DNA from: Actinomycetota bacterium
GTDB lineage: Bacteria; Actinomycetota; Acidimicrobiia; Spongiisociales; UBA5794
Direction of reading: 5' to 3'
DNA length: 64,000 nt
NCBI GenBank assembly: GCA_013151445.1
Contig: JAADIG010000137.1
Coordinates: 18,424 to 82,423, forward strand
Shown: piece after piece, positions 13,278-60,572 of the stretch
How positions within the stretch are numbered: the first letter of the stretch is position 1
Layout of the letters: the number at the start of each line of letters is the position of its first letter
Position numbers and translations under genes: made by a program
The notes under the pieces: model-generated
What the model saw: the letters and a program-made list of their open reading frames with translations, nothing else
Told to the model about the DNA's origin: nothing
Database searches by the model: none

Positions 13278-13327
13278 ATTTTGGCGTCCCACCACCCCAT
13301 GTTTCGTGCGCAAATGGACGCCAGAAT
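13278..13327. repeat. Intergenic palindromic repeat family, copy A
   Basis: ATTTTGGCGTCC...GGACGCCAGAAT, 50 nt; its CAAATGGACGCCAGAA is identical to the copy at 41731-41746. Confidence 0.7.
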
Positions 13328-13407
13328 GAGGATGATCGTGCTCGTTGACTTGATCAACTGCGCCGTAGCTGCGTGATCCGCGACTCTCGCCACCACACAG
13401 AAACTTC

Positions 13408-13439
13408 TTGACATTCCTGTTGACTGGAATGTGTACGGT
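13408..13439 (+). promoter_or_regulatory. MerR-family-type promoter/operator
   Basis: TTGACA (13408-13413), 20-nt spacer, TACGGT (13434-13439); dyad ACATTCCTGT-TG-ACTGGAATGT (13411-13432, 9/10 symmetric) between the hexamers. Confidence 0.72.
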
Positions 13440-13481
13440 GGCTGCGTGTAGCCAGATGAAACGTTCGGGAGCATCGAAACG

Positions 13482-13673
13482 ATGGAGCATGCAGGAATAG
13501 CAGTACAGGCGGAGCGCCCCCGCGGGCGTCCCGCAAAGAGGTTCATGCCGGGGAGAATCTGTATCGAACCGGAGTGTGTGACCCTCCTCAGTACGTACAA
13601 TCCGAACGATATGTGTTTCCGGCACAGTCCGATCCGTTTCCCGCGGACCCGTGGTCGGGTGGATGTAGAGTGA
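13482..13673 (+). CDS. 63-aa protein with C-x4-C-x12-C-x2-H putative metal-binding motif
   Basis: GRICIEPECVTLLSTYNPNDMCFRH; GGGAG RBS upstream; stop overlaps the next start (GTGA 13670-13673). Confidence 0.7.
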   Translation: MEHAGIAVQAERPRGRPAKRFMPGRICIEPECVTLLSTYNPNDMCFRHSPIRFPRTRGRVDVE

Positions 13674-14596
13674 CTGATTTCTTGACGGCCGTCACGGCGA
13701 TGCGAGGCGATGAGACTCGCTCGGATCATGATCATCCACGTTCGGCAGCTACCAAAACGAAACGCCGACCGGTACGTGGCTCGTTGGATGAATTGCACAC
13801 ATCGACGGTCGGCGGCCAGATTCGGCAGGGGCAGACGCCGTTCATATTCCTGCACGGGCTTGGCGGGACCCAGGTGTACTGGACCGCAGCCGACAGTGAC
13901 AGGTACCTGCCGCCACAGTCGACTCTCGTCGATCTTCTCGGGTTTGGCCAGTCACCCAGACCGTTCAAGAAGTACACCCTCGACACGCATCTCGCCGCAC
14001 TGGAGGCGGCGTTGGCTGGGCAACCTCCAGCGATCCTTGTCGGGCATTCCCTCGGGGCCGCTCTCGCATTGGCCTATGCCGTGCGCAATCCCGAGAGTGT
14101 GAAGGGACTGGTGCTGATCAGCCTCCCGTCGTACGGCGGCACCCAGGGGGCGATCCGTTGGCATCGACGACGGCTCAGCGGCTGGTTTCTCACCAACATG
14201 GTGCTTACTGGCCTGGCGTGTGTGACATCACGTCGACTGTTGGGGCCTCTGCTTCCCTTGATACTGCGCGACATACCCCGCGAGGTGGCTCGTGACCTTG
14301 TCGAACACAACGTCATGTCGTCGACTACGTCGCTGTGGAATGTGTTGTATCGCCGTGATGCGGTCGACGACCTCGATGCGCTCGCTCCCGACCTTCCGGT
14401 TACGTTCATCCACGGGACCAAGGACGGCACCGCTCCGATCGACTCGATTCGTGCCGTCACCGACGGGTACGAGAATCGGAAGCTGATCGAACTCGAAGGA
14501 GTTGACCACCACCCCTGGTTGCGAGCCCCCGGCGCATGCGCTGCGGCCATCGCCGACGCCGGGCGCGCCATTCAGACAGCACCACCAAAAGCATGA
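13670..14596 (+). CDS. Alpha/beta-fold hydrolase
   Basis: HGLGG, DLLGFGQS, nucleophile GHSLG, HGTKD, DHHPW; start set at the GTG overlapping the upstream stop. Confidence 0.88.
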   Translation: MTDFLTAVTAMRGDETRSDHDHPRSAATKTKRRPVRGSLDELHTSTVGGQIRQGQTPFIFLHGLGGTQVYWTAADSDRYLPPQSTLVDLLGFGQSPRPFKKYTLDTHLAALEAALAGQPPAILVGHSLGAALALAYAVRNPESVKGLVLISLPSYGGTQGAIRWHRRRLSGWFLTNMVLTGLACVTSRRLLGPLLPLILRDIPREVARDLVEHNVMSSTTSLWNVLYRRDAVDDLDALAPDLPVTFIHGTKDGTAPIDSIRAVTDGYENRKLIELEGVDHHPWLRAPGACAAAIADAGRAIQTAPPKA

Positions 14597-14627
14597 CAGG
14601 TGCTCGGCACCGGTCGAAAGTTGTGGA

Positions 14628-15245
14628 CTACTCGGGTGGGCGGAACCCGATCGCCGCACGCTCGGTTCGTGATCTCTTGAGTTCCCAGAAACCCGGTGTG
14701 GACCCCGCGGCGTGAACGCCATCCCACAAGCGCAGGGCTGCATCGATTTCGAGTTCGCGAGAAATCACCGGTCCGAAGATGGCGACCGGTTCGCCCTCAG
14801 CGTCATCAAATCCGATGATTGGTGTTCCGACGTCTTCACCGGTCAGTGCAAGAGCTTCGGCCATGCTTGCCGAGATCGTGTCGTCCCACGAAACATCGTC
14901 GGCCGCGAGCGCAAACTTACTGTCCAGACCGACGGCATCGAGGGCTTGCGCGGGATCGAAGTCGATATCCTGACCGAGGTGGATATGGCGGCCGTACTCG
15001 GTGTAGAGGTCACCGATGACCGCATCGCCCTTTTCGGAGCGAACGGCCTCAAGGACTCGCAGAAGCCGATGACTCTTGGTGTAGATGCCGGTGAAGGGGT
15101 GGTCCGGGTTATCAACGTTTTTCATCTTGAGACTGATTGACCGCCATCGAACGTCCAGGTCGCGGTGCGGTGCCACGTTGACGATCCAGCGCGATGTCAT
15201 CCAGCACCATGGACAGATCGGGTCGAGCCAATAGTTCACTCTCAC
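14628..15245 (-). CDS. DsbA-like thioredoxin-fold protein, Rv2466c (mycothiol-dependent reductase) family
   Basis: DPICPWCWMTSRW, GEDVGTPII, FGPVIS, FWELKR; RBS AGGAG. Confidence 0.88.
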   Translation of the reverse strand: MRVNYWLDPICPWCWMTSRWIVNVAPHRDLDVRWRSISLKMKNVDNPDHPFTGIYTKSHRLLRVLEAVRSEKGDAVIGDLYTEYGRHIHLGQDIDFDPAQALDAVGLDSKFALAADDVSWDDTISASMAEALALTGEDVGTPIIGFDDAEGEPVAIFGPVISRELEIDAALRLWDGVHAAGSTPGFWELKRSRTERAAIGFRPPE

Positions 15246-15474
15246 GTGATTCTCCTGATTCTTGTTGATAGGGGATACAAATTTGGTCGGGTCTCATGGA
15301 CTGACACCGCAGTTTGCTCGAAGAAATAGTATCAACGAATCAGTCACTCTATTCCGGTCGGGTTGTCGTCCTGGTTCTGCCCGAGTAACGCCTGTCCGTG
15401 GTGGTGAATATCAATGAGAGGGACATCGATGAGATCGTTTCGCACTGCCCTCGGCCTGTCTCTAGGGTATCTGC

Positions 15475-16104
15475 GTGATCGCTGGCACGACAGCGCGGAC
15501 GCGTATAGCTGTCCTGGTATCTGGGAGCGGGTCAAACCTGCAGGCCCTTATTGACGCATCTGTCGACCCTCATTTTGGTGCCGAGATCGCTGTCGTTGTT
15601 GCTGACCGGCCGAACGCCGGGGCACTCAAGCGTGCGGCGGATGCCGGGATTGCTCATGTGGTGGTTTCGTGGTCCGACTACTCCGACCGGGAGACATTCA
15701 CGACCGCTATCTGCGATGCAACCCACACCCATGACGTCACCGGGCTGGTCCTTGCCGGCTTCATGCGGATCCTTTCACCCGTGGCGATAAGACGGTATCC
15801 GGATGCGATCATCAACGTTCACCCGGCCCTGCTGCCGGCGTTCCCGGGAGCCGATGCCGTTGGCCAGGCGCTCGCCCACGGGGTGACAGTGACGGGTGTG
15901 ACGGTTCACTTTGTCGATGAGCAGGTCGACCACGGGCCGATTATCTTGCAAGAGTCGGCTGCGGTCCATCCCGACGACACTATCGATATCCTCCATCGTC
16001 GAATCCAGCAGATCGAACACACGGTGCTCCCGCTTGCGGTCGACGCTTTTGGCAAGGGTCTCCTCAGGGTCGTGGGTCGGCGCGTCGAGTGGTCTTCGTT
16101 ATGA
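15475..16104 (+). CDS. purN: Phosphoribosylglycinamide formyltransferase
   Basis: SGSGSNLQA, LAGFMRIL, NVHPALLP, GVTVHFVD, DHGPII; TAGGGT -10 six nt upstream. Confidence 0.96.
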   Translation: MIAGTTARTRIAVLVSGSGSNLQALIDASVDPHFGAEIAVVVADRPNAGALKRAADAGIAHVVVSWSDYSDRETFTTAICDATHTHDVTGLVLAGFMRILSPVAIRRYPDAIINVHPALLPAFPGADAVGQALAHGVTVTGVTVHFVDEQVDHGPIILQESAAVHPDDTIDILHRRIQQIEHTVLPLAVDAFGKGLLRVVGRRVEWSSL

Positions 16105-16144: not shown

Positions 16145-17686
16145 ATGACCAGACAACCGGTTCGGCAAGCACTGATATCCGTCTTTGATAAAACGGGTGT
16201 CGTAGATCTTGCTACCCGCCTCGTGGCCGGGGGAGTCGTGATCATCTCCTCTGGTGGGACCGCGAAACATCTTCGGTCCCACGGTGTGTCGGTGGTCGAC
16301 GTTGCCGACCTAACCGGCGCCAAGGAGATGCTCGGAGGTCGGGTGAAGACGCTGCACCCGACTATCCATGGTGCGATTTTGGCGGACCGTTCCCTGGCGA
16401 GCCATGTTGATGAGCTGTCCGATCGTGGGATTTCGCCTATCGACCTCGTCGTCGTAAATCTCTACCCGTTCGAGGCGACCGTGGCCGATCCGAACGCGAC
16501 CGTATCGGAGATCATTGAGAAGATCGACATAGGGGGCCCCACGATGATCCGGGCTGCGGCAAAAAATCACGCCCACGTGGCCGTGGCCACCGACCCGGAT
16601 GACTACCCGGGAATTGCCGCAGCAGTCGAACAGGGGGGAACGTTGCCGGAGGAACGCCAGGTACTTGCTCGCAAGGCCTTCGCCCACACGGCCGGATACG
16701 ATGCGGCGATTGTCCGGTGGTTTGATCGAGACGATTCGCTACCTGGGTTGCTTCCTCTCACTCTTGAACGCGTCGAGTCCCTGCGTTACGGGGAGAATCC
16801 GCACCAACCCGCAGCAATTTATACCGAGCGTGGAGCCCAAGGGTGGTGGCGTGAGGCGACGATTCATCAGGGTAAGGCGATGTCTTTCAACAACTACGCC
16901 GATACCGAGGCTGCGTGGCGTCTCGTAGGCGACCTCTCGCGCCCCGGTGTTGTTGTCATGAAACACATGAACGCCTGTGGCGCAGCGGAAGGGGCAACAC
17001 TCTCAGAAGCGTTCGGCACTGCCTGGGAGTGTGACCCAAAGTCTGGTTTTGGTGGCATCGTGGCCCTCAACGAGGAGTTGGACGAAGACACGGCCCGAAG
17101 GATTGTTGCGAACTTTGTCGAGGTGGTGATCGCACCGGGTCTCACCGAGGCCGCTGCCAACCTCCTTGCAAGCAAGAAGAATCTTCGTGTCGTTACCGCA
17201 CGGTTCCCCGAAACGGGAGGTCTCGACATGCGACGCGTCGAGGGGGGCATGTTGGTCCAATATCGAGACTCGCTTGCCACCGCTGGAGGAGATGTCCCCG
17301 CCGAGTGGCGTGTCGTTTCCGAGCGCACGCCGACAGATGAGGAGATGGCCGCATTGCGTTTCGCTTGGACGGTGGCCGGGCACACCAAATCCAACGCAAT
17401 CGTCATCGCCAACGGTCGTGCCGCTGTCGGTGTGGGCGCCGGTGACCAGAGCCGGGTTGGTGCCGCCGAGAGAGCGATCGTGAAGGCCGGTGACCGCACG
17501 GTGGGAGCCGTTGCTGCCAGCGATGCTTTTCTGCCATTCCGAGACACCCTCGACATCCTCGCTTATGCGGGGGTGCGTGCGGTTGTTGAACCGGGGGGAT
17601 CAAAACGCGACGATGAGGTCATCGCCGCCGCCGACGAGAGCGGCGTTTCGCTCGTATTCACCAACAAAAGGCATTTCCGACATTGA
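16145..17686 (+). CDS. purH: Bifunctional AICAR transformylase/IMP cyclohydrolase
   Basis: [46 protein letters not shown]; start after GGAG. Confidence 0.97.
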
Positions 17687-24817: not shown

Positions 24818-25093
24818 ATGAACAAGAGTGAGCTCATTGACAACGTCGTCAACGCAACGGGAGAGTCCAAGGCTGCCGTTGGTGCGGTGCTCGATGCAAC
24901 GCTCGGTGCAATCACCGGTGCGGTCAAGAATGGTGACAAGGTCCAGCTGACAGGTTTCGGAACGTTTGAACGCCGTCACCGTAAGGCGCGTGTCGGGCGC
25001 AATCCGCAGACCGGAGCCGAGGTACAGATCAAGGCAGCGAACGTGCCGGCGTTCAAGGCTGGCAAGGCATTCAAGGACACGGTCAACTCGTAA
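24818..25093 (+). CDS. hup: DNA-binding protein HU
   Basis: MNKSELI, GFGTF, RKARVGRNPQTG, PAFKAGK. Confidence 0.97.
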   Translation: MNKSELIDNVVNATGESKAAVGAVLDATLGAITGAVKNGDKVQLTGFGTFERRHRKARVGRNPQTGAEVQIKAANVPAFKAGKAFKDTVNS

Positions 25094-25107: not shown

Positions 25108-25170
25108 CCCCGTTCTTGTGACGTTTCGCTTGAATAGTCCTATTCAAGCGTCACAAGAACGGGGGTTTTT
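25108..25170 (+). terminator. Long hairpin terminator between convergent hup and SCP2 genes (palindrome family copy E)
   Basis: CCCCGTTCTTGTGA..CGCTTGAATAG-TC-CTATTCAAGCG-TCACAAGAACGGGG followed by TTTTT; GTTCT to AGAAC spans 49 nt (25112-25160). Confidence 0.75.
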
Positions 25171-41695: not shown

Positions 41696-41751
41696 TCCTG
41701 TTCTGGCGTCCATTTGGGCCGTATACCGCCCAAATGGACGCCAGAACAGGA
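41696..41751. repeat. Intergenic palindromic repeat family, copy B
   Basis: 24-bp perfect stem; core GTTCTGGCGTCCATTTGGGC-CGTATACC-GCCCAAATGGACGCCAGAAC is 48 nt (41700-41747). Confidence 0.8.
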
Positions 41752-44491: not shown

Positions 44492-44523
44492 AACCCAAAC
44501 AATTGTACCGAGGGCACGAATTA

Positions 44524-44979: not shown

Positions 44980-44995
44980 CCGGGCACTGGTGGGT

Positions 44996-45487: not shown

Positions 45488-45489
45488 GG

Positions 45490-46128: not shown

Positions 46129-46489
46129 ATCCGGAGGGTAACAAAGTAGATCGGGACATTCCGGGGTCTTCGTCGGATCGGTCCATCCTGGTTGCTCCGT
46201 GATGCTGCCTGGCGCTCATACTCCGATGGGGTACTCGTGTTGTGGACGCCAGTAACCTCCCCGCGAGTACCGTTGAGCATCGTCGGTACCACGGTCTCGA
46301 GAGCACGCCAGGTTCCGCCGCCGGGCGCCATCGTGTCTCGTTCCACGGATCCGTGGGTTGGAGCAGAGTGAAACAACCGGGTAGCGTTCGACTGCATTCC
46401 AACGAGAATTGATACGACACGTCTGGCAACGAACACCCACCGCGCAAGGTGAGCGGGGAAACCGACGACTACGAACACGTGAGGACGTA

Positions 46490-50012: not shown

Positions 50013-50022
50013 GGAGAAACAC

Positions 50023-51690
50023 ATGACGACAGAAGCGCTTGTCGATGCTCATAAGTCGACGCTGGACAAGGCACTGGAAGCCATCAAGACACGCGAATAC
50101 TGGAGCCCCTATCCCGAATCACCACGGGCCTATGGGGAGGACGCACCGGCTCTTGGCGAGGCCGCCTTCAAGGCGCGTCTCGGCAGGCCGTTCGAACTGG
50201 ATCAGCCTTGCGCGGGCATGATGGAAGTCGCCGAATCTTCGCCGTATGGCATCGAGCTTGGAGTGACGTATCCGCGACCCGATGTTGATCGGCTTGTTGA
50301 GCTTGCCCGTGACGCGATGAAGACGTGGGGCCGCGCATCGGCCGAGACACGTGCCGCGGTGTGTCTTGAGATCCTGGATCGCCTTTCGAAGCAGAGCTTC
50401 GAGATGGCCTACGCCGTGATGCACACGACCGGTCAGGCCTTCATGATGGCCTTCCAGGCCGGTGGACCACATGCCCTCGACCGTGCGCTTGAGGCGGTTG
50501 CCTACGGATATCGCGAAACGACCCGGGTTCCGGTCGCGATGCGTTGGGAGAAACCCCAGGGCAAACGGGATCCACTCATCATCGATAAGGAATGGCATGT
50601 CCGTCCCCAGGGCGTCGAGGTCACGATCGGGGTCTCGACATTCCCGACATGGAACGGGTATCCGGGGATCATGGCGAGCCTGGTGACCGGCAACGCATCG
50701 ATCATCAAGCCACACCCGGGGACGATCCTGCCGCTGGCGATCTTTGTCGAAACCGCACGTGCGGTCATCGCGGAGGCCGGGTTCGACGCCAACCTTGTGA
50801 CCCTGGCGGTCGACACTCCGGATGCACCGATCGGTAAGGATCTCGTGCTCAACGATGCCGTCAGGCTGGTCGATTTCACCGGTGGGTCGGCGTTTGGGAA
50901 CTGGCTTGAGGCCAATGTGCCCCAGGCTCAGGTATTCACCGAGAAGTCCGGCGTGAACTCGGTCATCATTGATTCCGTGCCGGATCTCAAGGGAATCATG
51001 CGCAACCTCACGGTGTCCACGTCGCTGTACTCCGGCCAGATGTGCACCACGCCCCAGAACATTTTCATTCCCCGTGACGGGATCGACGTCGGTGGTGAGC
51101 ATGTCAGTTTCGATGACGTGGTCAGGGCGTACACGAGTGGACTTGAGGGATTGCTCGGTGACGATGACAGAGCCAGCGACATTCTCGGAGCGATCAAGGG
51201 TGCCGACACACTGGCGCGTATCGAAAGTGCCGCTTCAAGTGGTGAGGTACTGCTCGAGTCGCGCACCGTCGTGAATCCCACTTTTGCGGATGCGACCGTC
51301 AGGACACCTGTCGTGATCTCTGTCGACGCTGGCGACGAGGACATCTATATGCGGGAGATGTTTGGCCCCGTGATCTATGTGGTTGCAACCGATTCGACCG
51401 AACACTCTCTGCAACTCGCTCGCGAATCGGCGAGCACCCACGGTGCTCTCACGTGGTTGGTTTACACGACCGACGAAGAGGTCTCTCGCCGTGCGGTGGA
51501 CAGTGCGGTCGAGGCCGGGGTATCGGTCGCGTTCAATCTCTTTGGTGGGTTGTACGTCAACCTGTCGGCAGCGTTTAGCGACTTTCATGTCACCGGTGCC
51601 AATCCTGCTGGAAACGCATCGCTCACAGACCCGGCATTTGTGGCAAATAGGTTCCGACTAGTTGGGGTAAGAAAGTCCGTTCTTTCGTGA
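50023..51690 (+). CDS. paaN: Phenylacetate degradation aldehyde dehydrogenase-like protein PaaN
   Basis: TTGQAFMMAFQAGGPHA, TFPTWNGYPG, EKSGVN, YSGQMCT, AFSDFH.TGANPA; RBS GAGGAG. Confidence 0.88.
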   Translation: MTTEALVDAHKSTLDKALEAIKTREYWSPYPESPRAYGEDAPALGEAAFKARLGRPFELDQPCAGMMEVAESSPYGIELGVTYPRPDVDRLVELARDAMKTWGRASAETRAAVCLEILDRLSKQSFEMAYAVMHTTGQAFMMAFQAGGPHALDRALEAVAYGYRETTRVPVAMRWEKPQGKRDPLIIDKEWHVRPQGVEVTIGVSTFPTWNGYPGIMASLVTGNASIIKPHPGTILPLAIFVETARAVIAEAGFDANLVTLAVDTPDAPIGKDLVLNDAVRLVDFTGGSAFGNWLEANVPQAQVFTEKSGVNSVIIDSVPDLKGIMRNLTVSTSLYSGQMCTTPQNIFIPRDGIDVGGEHVSFDDVVRAYTSGLEGLLGDDDRASDILGAIKGADTLARIESAASSGEVLLESRTVVNPTFADATVRTPVVISVDAGDEDIYMREMFGPVIYVVATDSTEHSLQLARESASTHGALTWLVYTTDEEVSRRAVDSAVEAGVSVAFNLFGGLYVNLSAAFSDFHVTGANPAGNASLTDPAFVANRFRLVGVRKSVLS

Positions 51691-51846
51691 ACCGAGACAT
51701 GTCCGTATGACAACTGTCCCCGCGATTCTCTAGGGTGAACCGAGTTCTTACGGATCGCAACCCCATATATGGGATCGAATAAGGGAGTTCAAGCTGGAGG
51801 TCAACGTCATGCCACTTCGTGGCTCCGTTGGATATAGAGAGGTCCT

Positions 51847-53718
51847 ATGACGGCGACAATGGACCGACCGTCGGCACCGAGCACTGGCTCGGGGTACCTG
51901 ACGGTCGCATCTCGTGCGCGCGATTGGGCGGCTACGTCGCCCGACCTGGTCGCGATGCGCGACAAAGATTTTGGAATCTGGCAGGAGAGAACCTGGGGAA
52001 GACTGTGGGATGAAGTCCTCACCGCGGCTCATGCACTGCTCGACATCGGTGTGTCCGTGGGTGATGTCGTTTCTATTCACTCCGAGGACCGGCCAGAGTG
52101 GATCGTTCTTGACCTGGCCACGGTTGCGATCCGGGGTATTACGACAGGTCTCTATCCGACAAACCCGATGGCTGAAGTCATCTATCTCGTCAACGACTCC
52201 GGCGCTGCGGTGCATTTTGCCGAGGATCAGGAGCAGATTGACAAGGTCCTGGAGGCAGAGCCCGGCTCATTCCCGCTGATCAAGAAGCTTCTCTACGTCG
52301 AACCGCGCGGTGTGCGTAACTATGACGATGACCGTCTCGAGTTCTGGGACGACTTCATGGAGCGCGGACGTGCCCACCGTGCCGCCAACGAAGGTGCCGT
52401 TGAAGCGTTGATGGCCCAAGCCGAGGCCGAGGATGTGATGACTCTCGTATACACGTCGGGGACGACGGGTCCGCCAAAGGGCGCCATGTTGACCAACGCC
52501 AACGCCGAGTTCGCCATCACAAAGATCGTACGAGCCCCGAACCGGACAGCCGACGGGAAGGCACCGGGAACCCATGACCAGGTGCTCACCTACCTGCCGC
52601 TGTGTCACGTCGCGGAGCGCATCTTTTCCACATGGACGATGGTTGGCACGGGCTGTGTCTTGAACTTCGCCGAGTCAATCGAAACCGTGCAGGTGAACCT
52701 GCGCGAGGTCCAGCCGACGTTGTTCTTTGCGGTGCCGCGCATCTGGGAGAAGATCCACGCCACTGTCCTCATCAAGATGTCCGACGCAACATGGTTTAAG
52801 AAGATCATCGGTGCGGGTGCGATGCGTCTCGCTACGTTCATTGGCCGCGAACGTGTCAACAACGGCGGGAACCATACGTTCAAGAGTCGAATCGCCTATG
52901 CGATCGGCGACCCGTTGGTGTTCCGGGCATTGAAGGAACGCATCGGAATGCGCCGCTGTCGCTGGGCGGGCTCCGGTGCGGCTGCGATCGCACCGGAGGT
53001 CCTCGAGTTCTTTATGGGTCTCGGGATTCCCGTGTACGAGTTGTACGGCATGACGGAGAATGCTGCGGTCGCGACGTTGAACTTCCACGGCCGAGTCAAG
53101 CTTGGCACCGTCGGCGAGCCGTATCCGGAGATCGGTTTACGCCTCGACGAGGAAACGGGTGAGATTCAGACCAAACATGGCGGGGTGTTCAAGGGTTACT
53201 GGAAGAAACCCGAGGCGACCGCGGAGACGTTCACCGACGACGGATGGTTGAAGACCGGCGATGTCGGCGAGTGGGTGGACGGCACCCATCTCAAGATCAT
53301 TGATCGCATCAAGCACATCATCATCACTTCGGGTGGTAAGAATATTTCGCCGTCGGAGATCGAGAACTCTCTCAAGGCCTCCCCGTTCGTGAAGGAGGCG
53401 ATGGTGATAGGAGACGGACGCAAGTACCTCTGCGCCCTGATCGGGATCGAGTTCGACACTGTCGGCAACTGGGCCCTGCGCCGGGAGATCACGTACACGA
53501 CGTACCGAGACCTGTCCGAGAAACCCGAAGTACTCGAACTCATCCAGGGAATCGTCAACAAAACCAACGAAAAATTCTCCAGAGTTGAGGGGATCAAGAA
53601 GTTCAGGATGATCCCCAAGGAGCTCGACCACGAGGATGGCGAGCTGACCGCCACCCAGAAGATCAAACGATCCGCCATGGTCGACATGTTCTCCGATCTC
53701 GTGGAGGAAATGTACTAA
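51847..53718 (+). CDS. Long-chain acyl-CoA synthetase (AMP-binding)
   Basis: YTSGTTGPPKG, YLPLCHVAER, YGMTE, TGDVG, GGKNISP, TQKIKR. Confidence 0.92.
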   Translation: MTATMDRPSAPSTGSGYLTVASRARDWAATSPDLVAMRDKDFGIWQERTWGRLWDEVLTAAHALLDIGVSVGDVVSIHSEDRPEWIVLDLATVAIRGITTGLYPTNPMAEVIYLVNDSGAAVHFAEDQEQIDKVLEAEPGSFPLIKKLLYVEPRGVRNYDDDRLEFWDDFMERGRAHRAANEGAVEALMAQAEAEDVMTLVYTSGTTGPPKGAMLTNANAEFAITKIVRAPNRTADGKAPGTHDQVLTYLPLCHVAERIFSTWTMVGTGCVLNFAESIETVQVNLREVQPTLFFAVPRIWEKIHATVLIKMSDATWFKKIIGAGAMRLATFIGRERVNNGGNHTFKSRIAYAIGDPLVFRALKERIGMRRCRWAGSGAAAIAPEVLEFFMGLGIPVYELYGMTENAAVATLNFHGRVKLGTVGEPYPEIGLRLDEETGEIQTKHGGVFKGYWKKPEATAETFTDDGWLKTGDVGEWVDGTHLKIIDRIKHIIITSGGKNISPSEIENSLKASPFVKEAMVIGDGRKYLCALIGIEFDTVGNWALRREITYTTYRDLSEKPEVLELIQGIVNKTNEKFSRVEGIKKFRMIPKELDHEDGELTATQKIKRSAMVDMFSDLVEEMY

Positions 53719-54698
53719 TGCTCAGTGTTCCGTTGATCGCCCAAGTGGGCGGGACTTCGCTCGAAACCTTCATCACGAAGACGATTGATGGTTTGGCGCT
53801 TGGGGCTATCTACGCCCTCCTAGCCCTCGGGTTTGTGATCATCTTCAAGGCAACCCAGGTGCTCACGTTTGCCCATGGTGCGGTGTCTGCAATGGGCGCC
53901 TATTTGGTTTCCTACTTTGCGGTGACCCTCAACGTTCCGGGTCGGTGGATGGGGGACCTTCCGGTGACGCTGCAGTTCGCTTTGTCGGCGGTTCTTGCGG
54001 TCCTCCTCGCCGCAGCTATCGGCATGGCGATCGAGCGGGTCTTCATCAGGCCGATGATCGGTGAACCCCTGTTCTCGATCGTCATGATCACCATCGGCCT
54101 CGATATTGTGATCAGAACCATCGTTGGCGACTACATCGGGCAGGGCAACACGGTGAGCACCGGCGCACCATGGGGTTTCCTATCCCAGTGGAGGATCGGT
54201 GGTGTGATCATCCAGCATGCCCAGGTCGCCACCATTATCGTTGCGGTCATCACTGTTGCGGTGCTCATGTGGTTCTTCAAGACCCGGATCGGTATTGCGA
54301 TGCGAGCAACGGCCTTCGATCAGGAAGCCGCGATGGCTCAGGGCATCAGCGCCGGGAAGATCTTCGCCCTGGCCTGGGGTATCGGCGCCGCACTCGCAGT
54401 TATTGGCGGAATCTTCGCAGCCGTGCCCCCACGGGCTCTGGGAGTGTCGGCGGGGACAGCATTTTTCGCACTTCGTGCATTTCCGGCAATCGTCATCGGC
54501 GGTCTTGACTCCATCAAGGGAGCCGTCGTCGGTGGGTTTATCGTCGGGATGGCCGAAGTGATGGCGGGTCATTACTTATCAAGTGTGACTGCCCTGGGTA
54601 TCGGGTTTAATACCGTCGTACCGTACCTTGTGATGATGGCGGTGCTACTGGTTCGACCCCACGGACTGTACGGAACAGTGGAGATTCGACGAGTATGA
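53718..54698 (+). CDS. LivH-like ABC permease
   Basis: GAIYALLALG, FAHG, GIAMRA, IGGLDS, RPHGLYG. Confidence 0.9.
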   Translation: MLSVPLIAQVGGTSLETFITKTIDGLALGAIYALLALGFVIIFKATQVLTFAHGAVSAMGAYLVSYFAVTLNVPGRWMGDLPVTLQFALSAVLAVLLAAAIGMAIERVFIRPMIGEPLFSIVMITIGLDIVIRTIVGDYIGQGNTVSTGAPWGFLSQWRIGGVIIQHAQVATIIVAVITVAVLMWFFKTRIGIAMRATAFDQEAAMAQGISAGKIFALAWGIGAALAVIGGIFAAVPPRALGVSAGTAFFALRAFPAIVIGGLDSIKGAVVGGFIVGMAEVMAGHYLSSVTALGIGFNTVVPYLVMMAVLLVRPHGLYGTVEIRRV

Positions 54699-55921
54699 GA
54701 GGCCGCCCGAACTTTTTCGCATCGTACGAGGCCGAGCAGGGTCTGCTGCCGACGACTACCAAGAAGATCTTCGCCGTTCTTGTGTTGATCGCAGCGATTT
54801 CGATCCCGTTCGAAGTGTTCCCGATTCTCGACAAGTTTGCGGAGCCGGCATGGCTGGTGCTGTTTAACCGTTCGTTGATTTTCCTGATCGCCGCGTTGGG
54901 GCTCAACATCCTGACGGGCCTTGCGGGGCAGGTGTCGCTCGGTCACGCGTTCTTTATGGGTCTTGGTGCCTACACCGCAGTTGTGTTGGGCGGCTCGGCG
55001 GAGGGTCTTTGGGGGCTTGGCCTCCCGATCTGGATCTGGTTGCCGATGGCGGGAGTTGTGCCCGCACTTGTCGGCATCCTTGTTGCCCCGACCGCGGTTC
55101 GCGTGCGTGGGTTGTACCTCGCAATCGTGACACTCGGTCTCGTGTTCATCGGCGAACATATCTTCCGCAACGCAAATTCCATCGCTGGCGCCCCCGAGGT
55201 CGGCCGTGAATGGCCGCGGCTCACCTTCCGTATCTGGAAGGAGGAGAATCCGCTCATCGACTTCTCGAGAGATGGGCAGTGGTTCGGGGTTTCGCTCTCC
55301 GGCGAAGCAAAGACATTCTTCTTCCTGCTCGTTGTCGCTTTGGTTTTTGTTGTTCTTGCGAAGAACCTCAGCCGGACTCGAATCGGGCGGGCGTTCGCCG
55401 CGATCCGTGACCGGGATGTGGCCGCCGAGGTGATGGGGGTGGGAGAGTTTCGTGCAAAGACTCAGGCCTTTGCGATCTCGTCGTTCTATGCGGGCATTTC
55501 AGGTGCCCTCTTCGGCGTCGTTGTCGGCCGTCTCATCCCGGAGACGTGGAACCTCTTCCTTTCGGTCCAGTTTGTCGCCATCGTCTTGATCGGCGGGGCC
55601 GGTACGGTTGCGGGCAGCGTGATGGGTTCGTTCTTTGTGGTGATGATGCCTCGGATGGTGGAGAACGTGACGCGATTCCTCAGTGAGCAGGCAGTCGGTG
55701 ACGGTCCGGTCTCTGCGATCGCCGACGTGGTCATATCGGTTAACGGAGATTTTGGAATCGTCTCGCTCGAGGCGCAGGGTCCGGGTCTCAGTATTTTCCA
55801 ACTCAATCAGGTTATCTACGGTCTTTTGATAGCAGTGTTCCTAATATCGGAGCCACTAGGGCTCTTCGGTGTCTGGATCCGTATCAGAAACTACTGGAAG
55901 AGTTGGCCGTTCACGTATTAG
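54695..55921 (+). CDS. LivM-like ABC permease
   Basis: GLNILTGLAGQVSLGH, GLYLAIVTL, GRAFAAIRD, EPLGL. Confidence 0.9.
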   Translation: MRGRPNFFASYEAEQGLLPTTTKKIFAVLVLIAAISIPFEVFPILDKFAEPAWLVLFNRSLIFLIAALGLNILTGLAGQVSLGHAFFMGLGAYTAVVLGGSAEGLWGLGLPIWIWLPMAGVVPALVGILVAPTAVRVRGLYLAIVTLGLVFIGEHIFRNANSIAGAPEVGREWPRLTFRIWKEENPLIDFSRDGQWFGVSLSGEAKTFFFLLVVALVFVVLAKNLSRTRIGRAFAAIRDRDVAAEVMGVGEFRAKTQAFAISSFYAGISGALFGVVVGRLIPETWNLFLSVQFVAIVLIGGAGTVAGSVMGSFFVVMMPRMVENVTRFLSEQAVGDGPVSAIADVVISVNGDFGIVSLEAQGPGLSIFQLNQVIYGLLIAVFLISEPLGLFGVWIRIRNYWKSWPFTY

Positions 55922-56011
55922 TGAAACGGCAATAGGTCAGGCCGCCCGATGTTTTTCACCGGGCGGCATGGAAAGAAAACGAAACAAACGAAACAAGAAA
56001 TGGGAGGTTGG

Positions 56012-57469
56012 ATGCACCTCAAGAAAAAAATGGTCGTCTTCGTTTTTGTCTTCGCGATGATTGCCGCCGCATGCGGCGGTAGTACTGCGACAACAACGAC
56101 GGCTGCACCGGGTGGCGGTGGAGACACCACCACGACGGCGCCGCCGGCGACAACAACAACAACGTCTGGTCCGACCACAACAGTGGCCCCTCCAGCAGAA
56201 GAAATTAAGATGGACCTCGGTGTCACTGACACTGAGATCAGGATTGGCTTGCTGGCCGACCTTACCGGTCCTTTCGCTGGTCTGACTGTTGACATCGTCG
56301 ACGCTCAGGTCGCGTACTGGGAAGATGTCGTAAATGCGAACGGTGGTATTGCCGGACGCATGGTGGTTCCCGTCATTGAGGACACCGCCTACGACGTTGT
56401 CCAGCACGGCGAGAAGTACACCAAGATCGTTGATCAGGTAGTTGCGTTCTCGAACTCAACCGGTTCGCCGCACACTGCCTCAATCCTTGAGAAGCTCAAG
56501 GAAGACAACATCTTGGCGATTCCGCTGAGCTGGTACTCCGGTTGGGCAGATCCGTCTTACGATGGCGGGCTGACCTTCGAGCAGGGTACGAACTACTGTC
56601 TCGAAGCGATGAACGTCGTTCAGTGGCTGGCCGAAAAGCACGAAGCGGAAACCGGCAACAAGCCGACGATCGCCATCGTGACCCGTGCCGGTGACTACGG
56701 ACAGGATGCCGCTGCCGGCGCCAAGTACGCAGCCGCCGAGTTGGGCCTCGATGTTGTGTACGACGGTGAAGGCACCATCGTGCGTGGACAGGACAAGACC
56801 CCGATCATTTCAGCCATCCTGGGTGCAAACCCGGACTGGGTCTGGATCACCGCAGCTCCTTCGGAGACTGGTGAGATCATGGGTGGTGCGGTTTCTCAGG
56901 GCTTCACCGGTCAATGGACAGGCTCCGTGCCTTCCTACGACTTCCGTATGCTCGATTCGGCATTGGCTCCTGCTTTGCAGGGCTTCTACTGGCAGACGGC
57001 ATACAACGTGACCTGGGGTACCGACGTGCCGGGCATGCAGCAGATCTCTGAAGTTCTGACTGCCCGTTACCCGGACCGCCGTCCGTCCGATGCCTTCGTC
57101 ATCGGTTGGAACGAGGCCGTGTCCATGGAGCAGATCCTTCGTACTGCCGCCGCTAACGGCGATCTCACCCGTCAGGGTGTTATCGACGCGGCGAACAGCA
57201 TCGATACGATTGCGTTCAATGGAACAGGTCCTGACTTCAACTACAAGGGTGAACCGAACGACTATGTCGTTCGCGAGATCTACATCCTGAAGCCGAACGC
57301 GGAGCGGTACGCCGCTGCGGGTGGAGCAGATCAGAAGTTGTCCGATGGTCTCGGAACCACTGGTTCCGACCTGGTTGAGGGTCCATTCACTGGGTCCCTT
57401 GCTGCCAACTTCAACTTCACCGGCGCATGCTGGACCGAAGCTGCTGGCAACACAATCGGAAACGGTTAA
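56012..57469 (+). CDS. Liv-type ABC substrate-binding lipoprotein
   Basis: Lipobox IAAAC, Thr-rich linker, GVTDTEIRIG, NANGGIAGR, DTAY; ATG 56012 after GGAGG. Confidence 0.88.
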   Translation: MHLKKKMVVFVFVFAMIAAACGGSTATTTTAAPGGGGDTTTTAPPATTTTTSGPTTTVAPPAEEIKMDLGVTDTEIRIGLLADLTGPFAGLTVDIVDAQVAYWEDVVNANGGIAGRMVVPVIEDTAYDVVQHGEKYTKIVDQVVAFSNSTGSPHTASILEKLKEDNILAIPLSWYSGWADPSYDGGLTFEQGTNYCLEAMNVVQWLAEKHEAETGNKPTIAIVTRAGDYGQDAAAGAKYAAAELGLDVVYDGEGTIVRGQDKTPIISAILGANPDWVWITAAPSETGEIMGGAVSQGFTGQWTGSVPSYDFRMLDSALAPALQGFYWQTAYNVTWGTDVPGMQQISEVLTARYPDRRPSDAFVIGWNEAVSMEQILRTAAANGDLTRQGVIDAANSIDTIAFNGTGPDFNYKGEPNDYVVREIYILKPNAERYAAAGGADQKLSDGLGTTGSDLVEGPFTGSLAANFNFTGACWTEAAGNTIGNG

Positions 57470-57484
57470 CGACTCACTGAGTTC

Positions 57485-57514
57485 GTGGGGGGTGCGACGT
57501 GTCGCACCCCCCAC
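57485..57514 (+). other. Intercistronic hairpin after the binding-protein gene
   Basis: GTGGGGGGTGCGAC-GT-GTCGCACCCCCCAC; typical 3' stabiliser giving excess binding-protein mRNA. Confidence 0.6.
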
Positions 57515-57541
57515 TTCTCACGAACAAGGAACACCCTCGAG

Positions 57542-58333
57542 ATGCTCGAAGTCGCCAACCTAGAAGTCGTCTACAACGACGTCGTGCTTGTCCTGCGTGG
57601 CATCTCCATTGTGGTGCCCGAGGGGAAGATCGTGGCGTTGCTCGGTGCCAATGGTGCCGGCAAGACAACGACGATTCGTGCGATCACGGGTTTGCTCGAT
57701 GTGCATGAGGGTGACATCACAAAGGGCCGTATCTCGTGGAAGGGTAAGGCGATCGAGAAGATGGACCCGGCAGCGATTGTGCGGTCCGGTATCACCCAGG
57801 TCCTTGAGGGTCGTCGCGTTTTCGCCGAGATGACGGTCGATGAAAACCTCAAGACCGGTGCGTTCACGAGCAAGAGCAAGGCTGCCGAAGCCGCGGCGTA
57901 TGACCGTGTCATGACCATGTTCCCGATCCTGGCCGACCGCCGCTCATCGATATCCGGCTACTTGTCGGGTGGTGAACAACAAATGTTGGCGATGGGTCGT
58001 GCGCTCATGGCCGACCCCGAACTGCTGATCCTCGACGAACCCTCGCTGGGTCTTGCGCCCAAGCTGGTGCAGCAGGTGAAGGAGATCATCGTCGAAATCA
58101 ACAAACAAGGCACGGGTGTCCTGCTGATCGAGCAGAACGCCAACATGGCGCTCTCGATTGCGAGCCATGGATACATCATGGAGACCGGCAAGGTCGTCAT
58201 GGACGGTGCCTCGGAGAAACTCCTCGGCGACGAAGACGTGCAGGAGTTCTACCTCGGTTTGCATGGCTCCGGGGAACGCAAATCTTTCAAAGACATTAAG
58301 CACTACAAGCGGAGGAAGCGGTGGTTGTCGTGA
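57542..58333 (+). CDS. LivF-like ABC ATPase
   Basis: GANGAGKT, LSGGEQQM, LDEPSLGLAP, EQN, C-terminal KHYKRRKRW. Confidence 0.92.
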   Translation: MLEVANLEVVYNDVVLVLRGISIVVPEGKIVALLGANGAGKTTTIRAITGLLDVHEGDITKGRISWKGKAIEKMDPAAIVRSGITQVLEGRRVFAEMTVDENLKTGAFTSKSKAAEAAAYDRVMTMFPILADRRSSISGYLSGGEQQMLAMGRALMADPELLILDEPSLGLAPKLVQQVKEIIVEINKQGTGVLLIEQNANMALSIASHGYIMETGKVVMDGASEKLLGDEDVQEFYLGLHGSGERKSFKDIKHYKRRKRWLS

Positions 58334-59106
58334 GCGAGCCGCTACTCGAATTCGAAGAAGTCAGCCTTTCGTTCAAGGGTGTCAAGGCACTCTCGGGTGT
58401 CAGCTTTGATGTCCGTGAGGGCGAGCTGTTCGCCATTATCGGACCGAACGGGGCGGGAAAGACCTCGGCATTTAACTGCATGAACGGCGTGTACAAACCC
58501 CAGGAGGGTGACATCCGCTGGAAGGGTGAATCGATCCTGGGCCGTCGCCCCGATCGCATCGCCGAACTCGGTATTGCCCGGACGTTCCAGAACATTGAGT
58601 TGTTTGCCCATATGACGGTGCTCCAAAACCTTCTGCTGGGGCGCCATATTCGCACCGATGTTGGGTGGTTCTCCGGGTCGTTCTGGACCAAGAAGGCCCG
58701 TCAGGAAGAGATGGACAATCGTGACAAGGTCGAGGACATCATCGACCTCCTGGAGATTGAGTCCTGGCGTCAGTATCCGGTGGCACTGTTGCCGTACGGG
58801 ATCCAGAAACGTGTAGAACTGGGTCGGGCACTCGCCATGGAACCCGAACTGCTACTGCTCGACGAGCCGGTGGCGGGCATGAACCTCGAAGAGACTGAGG
58901 ACATGGCCCGCTTTGTGCTGGACATTCGTGAAGAGCTGGGTATTGCAATCATTCTTGTCGAGCATGACATGGGTCTCGTGATGGACATCGCCGACCGGAT
59001 TCTCGTGCTCGACTTTGGTACGCCGATCGCGATCGGTGTCCCCGCCGATGTGCAGCGTGACCCCGAGGTTATCAAGGCATACCTCGGCGAAGACGTAGAC
59101 GCCTAA
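58330..59106 (+). CDS. LivG-like ABC ATPase
   Basis: GPNGAGKT, RTFQN, LPYGIQKRVE, LDEPVAG, EHDM, AYLG; GTGA overlap. Confidence 0.92.
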   Translation: MSEPLLEFEEVSLSFKGVKALSGVSFDVREGELFAIIGPNGAGKTSAFNCMNGVYKPQEGDIRWKGESILGRRPDRIAELGIARTFQNIELFAHMTVLQNLLLGRHIRTDVGWFSGSFWTKKARQEEMDNRDKVEDIIDLLEIESWRQYPVALLPYGIQKRVELGRALAMEPELLLLDEPVAGMNLEETEDMARFVLDIREELGIAIILVEHDMGLVMDIADRILVLDFGTPIAIGVPADVQRDPEVIKAYLGEDVDA

Positions 59107-59123
59107 CCTCCCCAACTCTCCTC

Positions 59124-59171
59124 CTTTTGGCGTCCAAAAACGCATAATGCTGCGTTCTCGGACGCCAAAAC
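59124..59171. repeat. Intergenic palindromic repeat family, copy C
   Basis: CTTTTGGCGTCCAAAAACGCA-TAATGC-TGCGTTCTCGGACGCCAAAAC, 48 nt. Confidence 0.75.
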
Positions 59172-59251
59172 ACCTGTATGTGGGGTGTCGGGGAACTAAT
59201 CTTGGTGACACGGTCGTCGTATCGGCGCCCAACTTCCGAATTGGGGATGAT

Positions 59252-60052
59252 ATGAATCAGCGAACCAGACTTCTTGCCACCGTGGCTGCCTTTGCTTTTG
59301 TCGCCGCGGCGTGCTCGGGCAGCGGCGGCGACTTCGTACCGGTAACGGTTGAGTCCACAACGTCAGCAGTGCCCGCGGCGACAACAACCACGACGGTCGC
59401 CCTCACGACAACAACAGCCGCACCGCCGGCCTCGTCGACGACGACAACCACGGTTGCGCCAACGACCACGACAACCGTGCTCCCGGGCGATCCGATGGAC
59501 TTCGGGCCTTCGGCGGGGGATGTACTTGCGGTCATCGGTGTCGAATCCGACGATGTACTCAACGTCCGGCAGGCACCGGGGATCAACCAGAACATTGTCG
59601 CAACCGCCCCTCCGCTCTCCCACAACCTCATCGCGGTCGGTAATACCCGGGCACTACCGAACTCCATCTGGATTGAGATCACACTCAACGGCACACCGGG
59701 CTGGGTGTCCTATTCGTTTGTTGGTTATCTCGGTGACACGGACGACGCCACCGCCGAGGTCGTCGCCGATTACGGTTCGATCCCGTCCGGCGCATCGGTA
59801 GATGAAGTTGTCGAGTTCACACTTGCGACGTTCGTCTCGGTCGATCCCCAATCACGGGTGACCCGCCCCGCAGCACCCATCGTGGGTGACCCGACCGAGG
59901 TGACGGTTGATGTTGTCAGCATTGGTGACGACGCAGTCCGCGGGTACCGCCTACACATTTTCGTACAACTCGAGGCCGGGGTGTACAGCCTCATGAGCGT
60001 GGAACGCACCTACATCTGTGGCCGCGGTGTCTCGGGCGGTCTCTGTCTGTAA
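59252..60052 (+). CDS. Lipoprotein with Thr-rich linker and SH3b-like domain
   Basis: Lipobox VAAAC; DDVLNVRQAPG...WIEI...GWVS; terminal C-x7-C. Confidence 0.75.
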   Translation: MNQRTRLLATVAAFAFVAAACSGSGGDFVPVTVESTTSAVPAATTTTTVALTTTTAAPPASSTTTTTVAPTTTTTVLPGDPMDFGPSAGDVLAVIGVESDDVLNVRQAPGINQNIVATAPPLSHNLIAVGNTRALPNSIWIEITLNGTPGWVSYSFVGYLGDTDDATAEVVADYGSIPSGASVDEVVEFTLATFVSVDPQSRVTRPAAPIVGDPTEVTVDVVSIGDDAVRGYRLHIFVQLEAGVYSLMSVERTYICGRGVSGGLCL

Positions 60053-60086
60053 CCGTCGGCGGAGTGGGGGCCCGTGTTCGGTGGGG

Positions 60087-60485
60087 CTAGGTGTCCTGTT
60101 TGATCAGGACGGTTCCGGTGAATGCGCCGATGAGCCTGTCGCCAGCGGTGATGTCGCTGCGGTAGGTAGCGAGTGAGCGACCCCGACGAAGCTCGGTGCA
60201 TCGGGCTGTGATTGTGTCGCCCGCGGTGGCGGACCCTGAATACACCATGTGGACGTCGATCGCAACGGCTTGCGGTCCCGCAACGTTGCTAGCAATCGCA
60301 AAGGCGATGTCGGCGAGGCCGTAACTCACGGCCCCGTGAAGGGTGCCGTGGACATTGCAGTGCGCGTCGGTCACGGTGAGCTCGATGACGATCACGCCGT
60401 CAGTGTCCGAGACGAATCGCGCACCGAGGTTCTGGGCGTAGGTGTCGCCATTGAATAGTGTCGCGGCTCTGGAGGTCATGTCCAT
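60087..60485 (-). CDS. paaI: PaaI-family hotdog-fold acyl-CoA thioesterase
   Basis: NVHGTLHGAVSYGLADIAFAIASN; TACAGT -10 six nt upstream of ATG 60485. Confidence 0.82.
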   Translation of the reverse strand: MDMTSRAATLFNGDTYAQNLGARFVSDTDGVIVIELTVTDAHCNVHGTLHGAVSYGLADIAFAIASNVAGPQAVAIDVHMVYSGSATAGDTITARCTELRRGRSLATYRSDITAGDRLIGAFTGTVLIKQDT

Positions 60486-60520
60486 CGGTGCACTGTACCA
60501 ACCCCACCCCGCTGATCTCC

Positions 60521-60572
60521 GGGTTCTAGCGTAACTGGGGGCCATATATGGCCCCCAGTTACGCTAGAACCC
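60521..60572. repeat. Perfect 52-bp palindrome; intergenic repeat family copy D
   Basis: GGGTTCTAGCGTAACTGGGGGCCATA|TATGGCCCCCAGTTACGCTAGAACCC; GTTCT-AGAAC core 60523-60570 is 48 nt. Confidence 0.85.

Follow-up and report, generated by a model that had tools for sequence, protein, structure and literature searches.

Dispersed 48-bp palindromes of an uncultured vent Acidimicrobiia bacterium and the nuclease genes found between them

What keeps short palindromes alike in length and at their ends when they are scattered over unrelated loci? The question is raised by five intergenic hairpins of about 48 bp, here called A–E, in a 64,000-nucleotide stretch (the window; G000:C1:18424-82423) of a metagenome-assembled genome (MAG) of Acidimicrobiia, from an uncultured vent bacterium. 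This draft genome, G000 (3.07 Mb in 159 contigs, 60.4% G+C, 98% completeness), holds many more hairpins of the same design. We lean towards reading them as miniature palindromic elements that are the cognate sites of a nuclease encoded between two copies—an arrangement built like that of repetitive extragenic palindromic (REP) doublets and their REP-associated tyrosine transposases (REPIN/RAYT), but with an enzyme of another class.

A length-constrained family with three sets of ends

The preliminary description of the window had proposed a genome-wide scan for end-matched inverted repeats as a check. Run over all of G000 with a degenerate-end pattern (TTYT[GTA]G[CT]G[TA], then 20–60 nt, then the reverse complement), such a scan returned 84 matches of strongly constrained length: 41 measure 46 nt and 34 measure 47 nt (75 of the 84 fall in these two classes), four are 48 nt, and there is one each of 43, 45, 53, 66 and 68 nt. 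Control patterns in the same genome (reversed pattern, left..left, right..left) matched nowhere, and when we scanned for any strong hairpin, the top 45 of 133 were all family members. The matches form three related sequence families:

F1, GTTYTGGCGTCC-N24-GGACGCCARAAC: 39 copies in G000, including A, B and C.
F2, GTTCTTGTGACG-N25-CGTCACAAGAAC: 33 copies in G000, including E.
F3, CTTCTTGCGTAA...TTACGCAAGAAG: 9 copies in G000, including D.

Outside F1–F3 stand three of the 84, namely two intermediates and a 66-nt match with 12 pairs inside an open reading frame (ORF; C130:39947, copies being cited by contig and position), which is probably a chance match. Two F2 pairs (C130:628/2180 and C77:36314/C133:74) are identical and have one flank in common; they may stem from a local ~1.5-kb duplication and from contig-end redundancy instead of separate insertions, and the F2 count of 33 may be one or two too high.

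An element spans 48–49 bp and consists of inverted end boxes of 11–13 bp around a 24–25-bp interior with an AT-rich centre. Interiors had been described as unrelated from copy to copy; this holds between families and between genomes, but within a family in G000 they are family-specific, F1 having two main types (ATTTGGGCGATATATCGCCCAAAT and AATAACGCACCATGGTGCGTTATT). In some copies the arms look chimeric, as if two arm types had been joined (in F1, A and C112; in F2, many copies), and one gene is flanked by copies whose arm types are reciprocal, C54 2427 and C54 3220.

All five window palindromes were found where they had been placed, and crude codon-bias gene calls bear out the claim that each is intergenic. 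They are listed here by window position, none with a strand of its own, together with a neighbouring hairpin that lies outside the family:

13278..13327, element A, degenerate F1 copy: ends TTTTGGCGTCC / GGACGCCAGAA intact; 12/24 pairs.
25112..25160, element E, F2: GTTCTTGTGACG ... CGTCACAAGAAC, 49 nt; the stem reaches 25108-25164 and is followed by GGGGGTTTTTCTT.
41700..41747, element B, F1: near-perfect 48-nt palindrome; the stem reaches 41696-41751.
59124..59171, element C, F1: imperfect interior, 19/23 pairs.
60523..60570, element D, F3: perfect palindrome (60521-60572).
60572..60610, minus strand: ordinary terminator-like hairpin outside the palindrome family, between the stop of the gene 60633-61415 (minus strand) and D.

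An inverted-repeat search ranks B, D, E and C as the top four of 24 inverted repeats in the window, with arms of 28 nt (96%), 26 nt (100%), 19 nt (95%) and 20 nt (90%), respectively. Compared with shuffled sequence, their DNA fold energies are extreme (B, -31.2 kcal/mol, z -13.6; D, -31.4, z -12.9; E, -24.9, z -11.4; C, -17.2, z -7.3). Element A is not among the 24. It folds at only -11.2 kcal/mol (z -2.9), a value equalled by one of 200 shuffles, and since the fold is weak and the interior mostly unpaired while the ends are intact, A is a degenerate F1 copy—in keeping with the weak self-complementarity noted for it before. The separate terminator reported beside D is also there, abutting the element.

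No known RNA family was matched: an Rfam search of the whole window at gathering thresholds gave no match, and an E-value search of 59000-60700 gave sub-threshold hairpin look-alikes only (mir-3146, His_leader, psaA). A DNA-uptake sequence was considered and rejected; TGGCGTCC 8-mers number 137 and 130 on the two strands, some 40 of each inside elements, which is near the ~90 per orientation expected from rough composition-based arithmetic.

Comparison across genomes separates what is conserved in the element from what is not. Exact F1 ends with a 24-nt gap occur as 88 stretches in a species-representative genome collection; the 80 listed of these come from MAGs titled Acidimicrobiia, Acidimicrobiaceae, Acidimicrobiales, Actinomycetota, "uncultured bacterium" and "Bacterium BMS3Bbin02," apart from three that belong to one bin titled Acidobacteria. 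It is this tighter pattern that is informative, a looser scan of the collection giving chance matches in all phyla. Among 41 relatives, a less strict form of the F1 pattern is found in seven genomes counting G000 (G000 36, G015 22, G002 19, G001 11, G006 3, G007 1 and G008 1), and reversed controls give none. The F1 ends are identical across genomes over 11 nt, whereas the 24-nt interiors differ widely and are nevertheless mostly self-complementary, with a mean of 9.3 of 12 interior pairs formed; shuffling the partners 1000 times gives 5.8, and never more than 6.4. In an alignment of 88 distinct F1 copies, 89.9% of cells pair vs. 75.9% in shuffles, and double-sided changes in the interiors—which, unlike the ends, are not fixed by the search pattern—amount to 286 cells vs. 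113.5 ± 8.7 (0 of 500 shuffles as high; slid controls 34–112). At three positions outside the search pattern (C20, A24 and T25), 90% or more of these 88 copies agree, so the element centre is also constrained.

Pairing is not what holds the length in every family. F2-type elements measure 47 nt, with 45 or 48 as rare exceptions, and those of the type found in genome G039 are 49–50 nt, and the interiors of both are largely not self-complementary; such fixed spacing without interior pairing points to a distance set by a protein rather than by base pairing. Boxes at a fixed distance, a constrained AT-rich centre and a variable interior, paired only in certain lineages, together point to a DNA site that a protein recognises and not just to an RNA hairpin. 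In G039 itself, the 49-nt elements often stand as tandem doublets with starts ~60 nt apart and an 11-nt spacer (e.g., C7:65744/65804, C10:45760/45820, C23:81011/81071, C28:11078/11138 and C56:1249/1308), an arrangement not seen in G000.

Nuclease genes between paired copies

The preliminary description had proposed an element of REP/REPIN type or like a miniature inverted-repeat transposable element (MITE), or else a protein-bound palindrome, maintained in trans by an enzyme encoded outside the window, and had named linked RAYT and DUF559 genes as ones to look for. The genome supports the proposal, and of the two kinds of gene the second is the one that is linked. Specifically, the Y1/RAYT transposase family (PF01797) has no match in G000 by a search that was positive in 6 of 14 control genomes, while DUF559 (PF04480) has exactly two, both on contigs other than that of the window and both in genes bracketed by two elements, an association that recurs in relatives. 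The two genes are:

C77:15623-16546, F2-bracketed nuclease gene, 307 aa: between F2 copies at 15526-15580 and 16522-16574.
C149:86225-87142, minus strand, F3-bracketed nuclease gene, 305 aa: between F3 copies at 86172-86225 and 87189-87250.

At each, a single ORF fills the space between the bracketing elements, the upstream copy lying ~45 nt before the start codon; in the C77 gene the last codons and the stop are inside the right F2 copy. Their proteins are paralogues (36% identical), and a tblastn search of G000 at E <= 1 found no third. In the sister species G002 ("Bacterium BMS3Bbin02"; ~78–82% nucleotide identity in aligned loci), an intact 309-aa ORF, 57% identical to the C149 protein, lies between two F1 copies. 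Each of the families F1, F2 and F3 has its own nuclease paralogue, that of F1 being the one found in G002.

From domain matches and a structural model, the protein is predicted to be an AbiEi-like winged helix-turn-helix (wHTH) DNA-binding module fused to a PD-(D/E)XK nuclease domain of the Vsr/DUF559 ("EDxHD") kind. Pfam places an AbiEi_4 winged helix at the N-terminus, with a weak AbiEi_1 match, and REase_MTES_1575/DUF559 at the C-terminus; PADLOC models of AbiEi match the first ~180 residues (E 1e-25 to 1e-31), and NCBIfam has no protein match above its cut-offs. An AlphaFold (AF2) model built from 22 homologues (predicted local confidence, pLDDT, 88.5) resembles AbiEi (6y8q) over its N-terminal two thirds, with a template-modelling (TM) score of 0.64–0.70, and its last ~100 aa resemble the catalytic domain of I-Bth0305I (3r3p; TM 0.81), then the DUF559 protein 3hrl and Vsr; sequence-level matches of the nuclease domain are to 3hrl and 3r3p as well. 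Twenty-two columns are invariant in 22/22 homologues, among them S199, E202, R232, D234, E245, D247, H252 and D261. Both halves have relatives that recognise long or inverted sites. I-Bth0305I is reported to be a homodimer with several domains; its footprint covers ~60 bp, and its specificity is highest over a 14-bp pseudopalindrome that has the cut at its centre. The promoters of AbiEi and Rv2827c are reported to contain inverted repeats to which these proteins themselves bind. The architecture of AbiEi-like wHTH plus DUF559 is widespread, occurring in 58 of 151 sampled Actinomycetota genomes at up to 14 copies per genome.

Bracketing is not peculiar to G000. Homologues occur in 28 of the 41 relatives (E <= 1e-5). 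When only the ends were required (an exact 9-mer and its reverse complement spanning 38–60 nt), elements were found on both sides of the gene at 30 of 68 homologue loci and on one side at 17; as the 68 include at least three duplicates (L241/L266, L246/L297 and L248/L289), the independent number is slightly lower. Among G000 genes of 200–450 aa taken as a control, elements stand on both sides of 6 of 1398, and two of those six are the nuclease genes themselves. A hairpin criterion (palindrome of at least 40 nt), applied to the 42 loci with enough flank, gave both sides at 13, one at 12 and neither at 17. The spacing is very regular, the upstream copy ending ~80 nt before the protein match and the downstream copy starting ~21 nt after it. 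Two loci, L270 (CAXMQO010000026.1) and L289 (CAXMRC010000090.1), are in bins titled Saprospiraceae and Gemmatimonadales and hold nuclease units of the Acidimicrobiia type, 59–67% identical to the query, with the flanking elements of L289 reading as those of G015 (L248); these contigs are likely mis-binned.

The box beside the nuclease gene is that genome's dispersed type, present at 4 to 62 copies. The counts by type are:

F2-type, TTCTYGTGACG-N(18-32)-CGTCACRAGAA: G000 33, G029 49, G027 (an unpublished genome) 23, G025 6, G002 5.
G039 type, TTTCTCRGCAAT...: G039 62, G028 6, G000 0.
G036 type: G036 4, two of which flank the nuclease gene; G029 1, G000 0.
F1 ends: G015 22, with the nuclease gene of G015 between two of them.

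Reversed controls for all box types gave none, and the nuclease genes of G029 and G027 each lie between two F2-type copies.

Element turnover and competing explanations

Against our own crude gene calls (3030 genes in G000), 32 of the 84 elements lie in convergent regions, 33 in tandem and 9 in divergent ones, with 6 inside a called ORF—several of these being over-extended 5' ends of gene calls—and 4 at contig ends. Background intergenic regions of at least 60 nt number 182 convergent, 787 tandem and 356 divergent, and convergent regions are thus enriched in elements. A gene reads into the element within 400 nt in 67 of 84 cases, at a median distance of 14 nt from the stop codon (quartiles 7.5 and 26). 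In seven cases the stop codon is inside the element, and in five of these it is the TGA of the F2 box: five ORFs (G000 C5:27214, C27:6257, C54:3220, C92:3656 and C130:2180) end in the TGA of the end box TTCTTGTGACG, so that the element itself supplies their stop codon. C and T prevail in the left flank and G and A in the right one, pairing past the core fades within ~7 nt, and the consensus 3' flank is CGGGGAG-like, without a T-run. Several copies, D included, abut a separate ordinary terminator hairpin.

At these positions elements come and go. D persists at its orthologous site in G002, having undergone two double substitutions that are compensatory; its neighbouring terminator persists as well, and B is kept at the sister-species site too (L127). 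Empty sites in relatives had been suggested as a check, and two copies differ in presence: C is missing at its orthologous site in G002, and the F2 copy on C109 is a clean 78-bp indel between G000 and G002 that includes the extended stem, the copy being in one species only. The C-terminus of the gene next to the C109 copy differs between the two species exactly where the element is present or absent. Interiors change as well. On C54, F2 ends are identical to those in G002 around a scrambled interior; at C24:25054 and C57:408 the two species have different F1 interiors from end to end, type II in G000 and type I in G002, between flanks that are 85–100% identical. Decayed remnants of elements persist in G000 on C149 and C99. 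As for the nuclease genes, synteny between the F3 unit and its counterpart in G002 extends over 3.9 kb, while the closest relative of the F2 protein is in G029, a member of another family-level lineage (76% amino-acid and 74% nucleotide identity), a likeness that may mean transfer. We also considered insertion into the loops of older terminators and rejected it; pairing past the core falls to what the C-rich and G-rich flanks lead one to expect, and the C109 indel takes in the extended stem.

How might a nuclease bring this about? We infer cleavage and copying of the elements by the bracketed enzyme, along the following lines. A dimer could bind the two end boxes through its AbiEi-like domains, which would set the fixed spacing, and might cut either at the AT-rich centre, which is conserved, or close to it, or else at the borders of the element. 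Repair of the break, recombination or template switching would then copy elements to new sites behind genes, overwrite or swap interiors, and allow DNA segments, the nuclease gene included, to come to sit between two direct copies. Orientation can be scored in the 26 units whose elements are sufficiently asymmetric: the copies on either side of the nuclease gene form direct repeats in 18 of them and inverted repeats in 4, with 4 ties. As an idea only, a staggered cut at both borders followed by fill-in could yield a direct duplication of the whole site around the inserted DNA; this fits one cargo site of G002 (L195) poorly, because the duplicated stretch there overruns the element by ~30 nt. 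Any terminator or mRNA-stabilising effect would be secondary.

Beyond the pairing of site and enzyme, we suggest tentatively, and with more doubt than conviction, that an AbiEi-like wHTH plus Vsr-type nuclease and its two-box palindrome of 47–49 bp form an undescribed class of self-perpetuating system in Actinomycetota. Through cuts at its sites, such a system would both spread and homogenise tens of solo copies behind genes and, as a side effect, would let other genes travel as exchangeable cassettes between two copies; it would be an analogue of REPIN/RAYT with an independent origin in another enzyme fold. A literature search, with subscription journals, supplements and annotation notes outside its scope, found no description of this enzyme/palindrome pairing. 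To our knowledge, the RAYT transposases are the only kind of enzyme established for REP-like repeats, common though these are. If the interpretation is right, a second, unrelated class of enzyme would be paired with dispersed palindromes, and a widespread protein architecture of unknown function would gain a role. The enzyme would be a new sequence-specific nuclease that has a long site (~48 bp) and whose specificity can be exchanged, and there would be an explanation for the hot spots at which this uncultured vent lineage gains and loses genes behind other genes.

Several observations weigh against it. G000 has 39 F1 copies, yet an F1-type nuclease gene was not found in the assembly (tblastn, E <= 1), and in G001, which has 11 F1-like elements, no homologue was found at E <= 1e-5. 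No flanking element was seen at 21 of the 68 homologue loci under the ends-only criterion. Across the phylum (28 loci from a sample of 151 genomes, five of the loci from the unpublished genomes G157, G182, G106, G057 and G041), a mechanical count gave elements on both sides at only 6 loci, on one side at 11 and on none at 11, and a shared box is visible by eye in four of the six (L329, L341, L342 and L346). Mapped onto a 43-homologue tree, the box labels require 22 changes vs. 30.9 when shuffled (0 of 200 shuffles as low), but this agreement adds little because physical linkage alone predicts it. Target-site duplications were not seen, the bases flanking the elements being complementary and not direct repeats, and contigs from four vent metagenome runs over 41100-61000 show no presence/absence variation at B and C. 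We know of no PD-(D/E)XK nuclease that joins DNA on its own, and the copying step therefore needs host functions. The position just behind stop codons, the strong covariation of F1 and the T-run after E would fit a role at the RNA level as well. Finally, that the enzyme binds, cleaves and moves the elements is what we infer from their arrangement.

The alternative that survives best, though we hold it unlikely, is that the elements are fixed binding sites of an AbiEi-like host protein—a regulator, roadblock or chromosome organiser—whose gene is autoregulated, with the elements immobile and the nuclease serving otherwise. The box spacing that stays constant even where the interior is unpaired suits this well, as do the upstream copy ~45 nt before the start codon and the vertical inheritance that synteny of the F3 unit between G000 and G002 implies; 4 to 62 copies resemble a regulon, and AbiEi-family proteins are reported, as noted above, to bind inverted repeats of the promoters of their own genes. 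Against it, entire elements are gained and lost as indels at orthologous positions, interiors have been swapped wholesale at two sites, and many copies at unrelated loci are identical or near-identical; 67 of 84 elements lie behind a gene end and not in a promoter, and the residues D234, E245, D247, H252 and D261 of the nuclease domain are invariant in 22/22 homologues.

We give less credence still to a second alternative, by which the palindromes are recombination or cassette junctions like attC or Xer pdif, the solo copies are leftovers of excision and the nuclease gene is one cassette among others. What invites it is the excess of close pairs: there are 14 adjacent pairs within 2.5 kb, vs. 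4.4 ± 2.0 expected if elements are placed at random behind genes (0 of 2000 trials as high, the most being 12), and such pairs bracket ordinary single genes, among them phosphatase-like, MerR-like and HPRT-like ones (N-termini read by eye). One gene end (that of the gene at C89:3711-6006) has three states in three genomes, namely a single F1 copy in G000, F1-2 kb-F1 in G002 and an F2-type pair around a nuclease gene in G029. The mostly direct orientation of flanking copies (18/26 units), the chimeric arms of A, C112 and many F2 copies and the reciprocal arms at C54 2427/3220 likewise suggest junctions that recombine. However, none of the six tyrosine-recombinase matches in G000 lies within 10 kb of an element (no IntI-specific model was searched), most elements are solitary, the ends misfit the core-site order of attC, the L195 duplication is ~30 nt longer than the element, and on C54 both relatives carry other inserts at both element positions and show no clean empty site. 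One such insert is seen at L234 (G002:C47, reverse strand), where a stretch of ~1.2 kb adjoining the orthologue of G000:C54:2632-3228 holds a two-gene insert in place of the F2 copy C54:3220; its second ORF has an HPFxxGNGR-like motif, which would make it Fic/Doc-like, and ends in an ordinary hairpin.

That the hairpins are plain terminators or mRNA-protecting structures under selection, with an incidental link to the nuclease, seems to us very improbable: the median of 14 nt from the stop codon, the convergent enrichment (32/182 regions vs. 33/787 tandem and 9/356 divergent), the very stable folds, the compensatory change in F1 (286 vs. 113.5 ± 8.7) and the T-run after E all accord with it, but the consensus 3' flank is G/A-rich and without a T-run, D and several other copies adjoin a separate canonical terminator hairpin, 9 copies are in divergent regions, F2-type and G039-type interiors are unpaired and still keep their length, Rfam has no match, and neither identical end boxes across genera nor the bracketing of 30/68 nuclease genes vs. 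6/1398 controls would be expected of terminators.

Known systems and local context

The likeness of our elements to REPIN/RAYT, whose general features we take from published descriptions, extends to several points. Tens of short extragenic palindromes lie mostly behind genes (65 of 84 here in convergent or tandem regions), several families share a genome, the hairpin is kept by compensatory change, and a single-copy enzyme gene, apparently vertically inherited, is flanked by its own repeats. The differences are equally definite. Here the ends, (G)TTYT...ARAA(C), are paired, with no unpaired GTAG/CGTC head; the element is one 48–49-bp unit with conserved ends of 11–13 bp; and in place of PF01797, which has no match in G000, the enzyme is an AbiEi-like wHTH with a Vsr-type PD-(D/E)XK nuclease. 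A MITE has terminal inverted repeats and a target-site duplication, and its parent insertion sequence has the same ends and a transposase. The ends of the present elements are inverted; the bases adjoining them are complementary and not direct repeats, and between same-ended copies the wHTH-nuclease gene is the only one found, a gene of no transposase family known to us. Intrinsic terminators differ by the T-run, which the consensus 3' flank lacks and which, among the five window copies, only E has. The attC sites of integrons have core sites RYYYAAC ... GTTRRRY and form cassette arrays beside an integron integrase; here GTT stands on the left and AAC on the right, in the opposite order, and copies are dispersed over many contigs.

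With I-Bth0305I the protein shares the nuclease fold, including acidic and histidine residues that are invariant here. Homing endonuclease genes reside in introns, inteins or split host genes, and their products cut the empty allele. The gene for I-Bth0305I lies within a group I intron of a phage, and the enzyme has one target, whereas the gene described here is free-standing in intergenic DNA between two intact sites, and its site is dispersed tens of times. AbiEi of S. agalactiae and Rv2827c of M. tuberculosis are matched by the N-terminal ~180 residues, at the level of models and structures; in the AbiE type IV toxin-antitoxin system, one operon encodes AbiEi together with the toxin AbiEii (DUF1814), a nucleotidyltransferase, whereas the present unit is a single ORF with no AbiEii partner inside (DUF1814 was not searched genome-wide), its nuclease is fused and its sites are genome-wide.

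Two further sets of repeats invite comparison. CGTC-tagged REPs are described (Di Nocera et al. 2013, PMC3733652) as dispersed palindromes behind genes with 8–9-bp stems, 4–5-nt loops, an unpaired CGTC head and no dedicated transposase known, and they are reported there mainly from Alphaproteobacteria, with no mention of Actinobacteria found. The letters CGTC occur in the F1 and F2 boxes too, but inside the paired stem of a 48-nt palindrome. The TRIT elements are sequence-conserved terminator hairpins of mycobacteria. By description, the present elements resemble them in that a hairpin of conserved sequence follows genes of an actinobacterium; we know of no enzyme gene that goes with TRIT.

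In assemblies, the perfect palindromes leave a trace of their own. Contigs of the vent runs read through B and C and are interrupted close to the D centre, and Logan contigs of three of the four runs (X1, X2 and X5) end or start at 60543-60550. The breaks at the D centre are an assembly-graph effect of perfect palindromes, and the loose ends at 41700 and 41747 are what other repeat copies would give. The same effect may explain why some G000 contigs start with an element (C79:44, C66:44, C133:74 and C45:162), and it may also explain how a bin could lose a ~1-kb unit that lies between two repeats.

Within the window, the surroundings of the five copies are varied. A begins 19 nt past the stop of an ORF of unknown kind (12702-13259, plus strand), C lies 18 nt past the stop of an ABC ATPase gene (58321-59106, plus strand), and E is placed between the convergent genes for HU (24818-25093, plus strand) and SCP2 (25177-25572, minus strand). 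D sits between the terminator hairpin and a thioesterase gene. B is 13 nt past the stop of a Zincin_2 gene (41760-42854, minus strand), and on its other side an AhpC/TSA gene has a probable ATG at 41689, ~10 nt beyond the element (Pfam match from residue 25); if that is its start, the purine-rich flank of B (AGGA) would be its ribosome-binding site.

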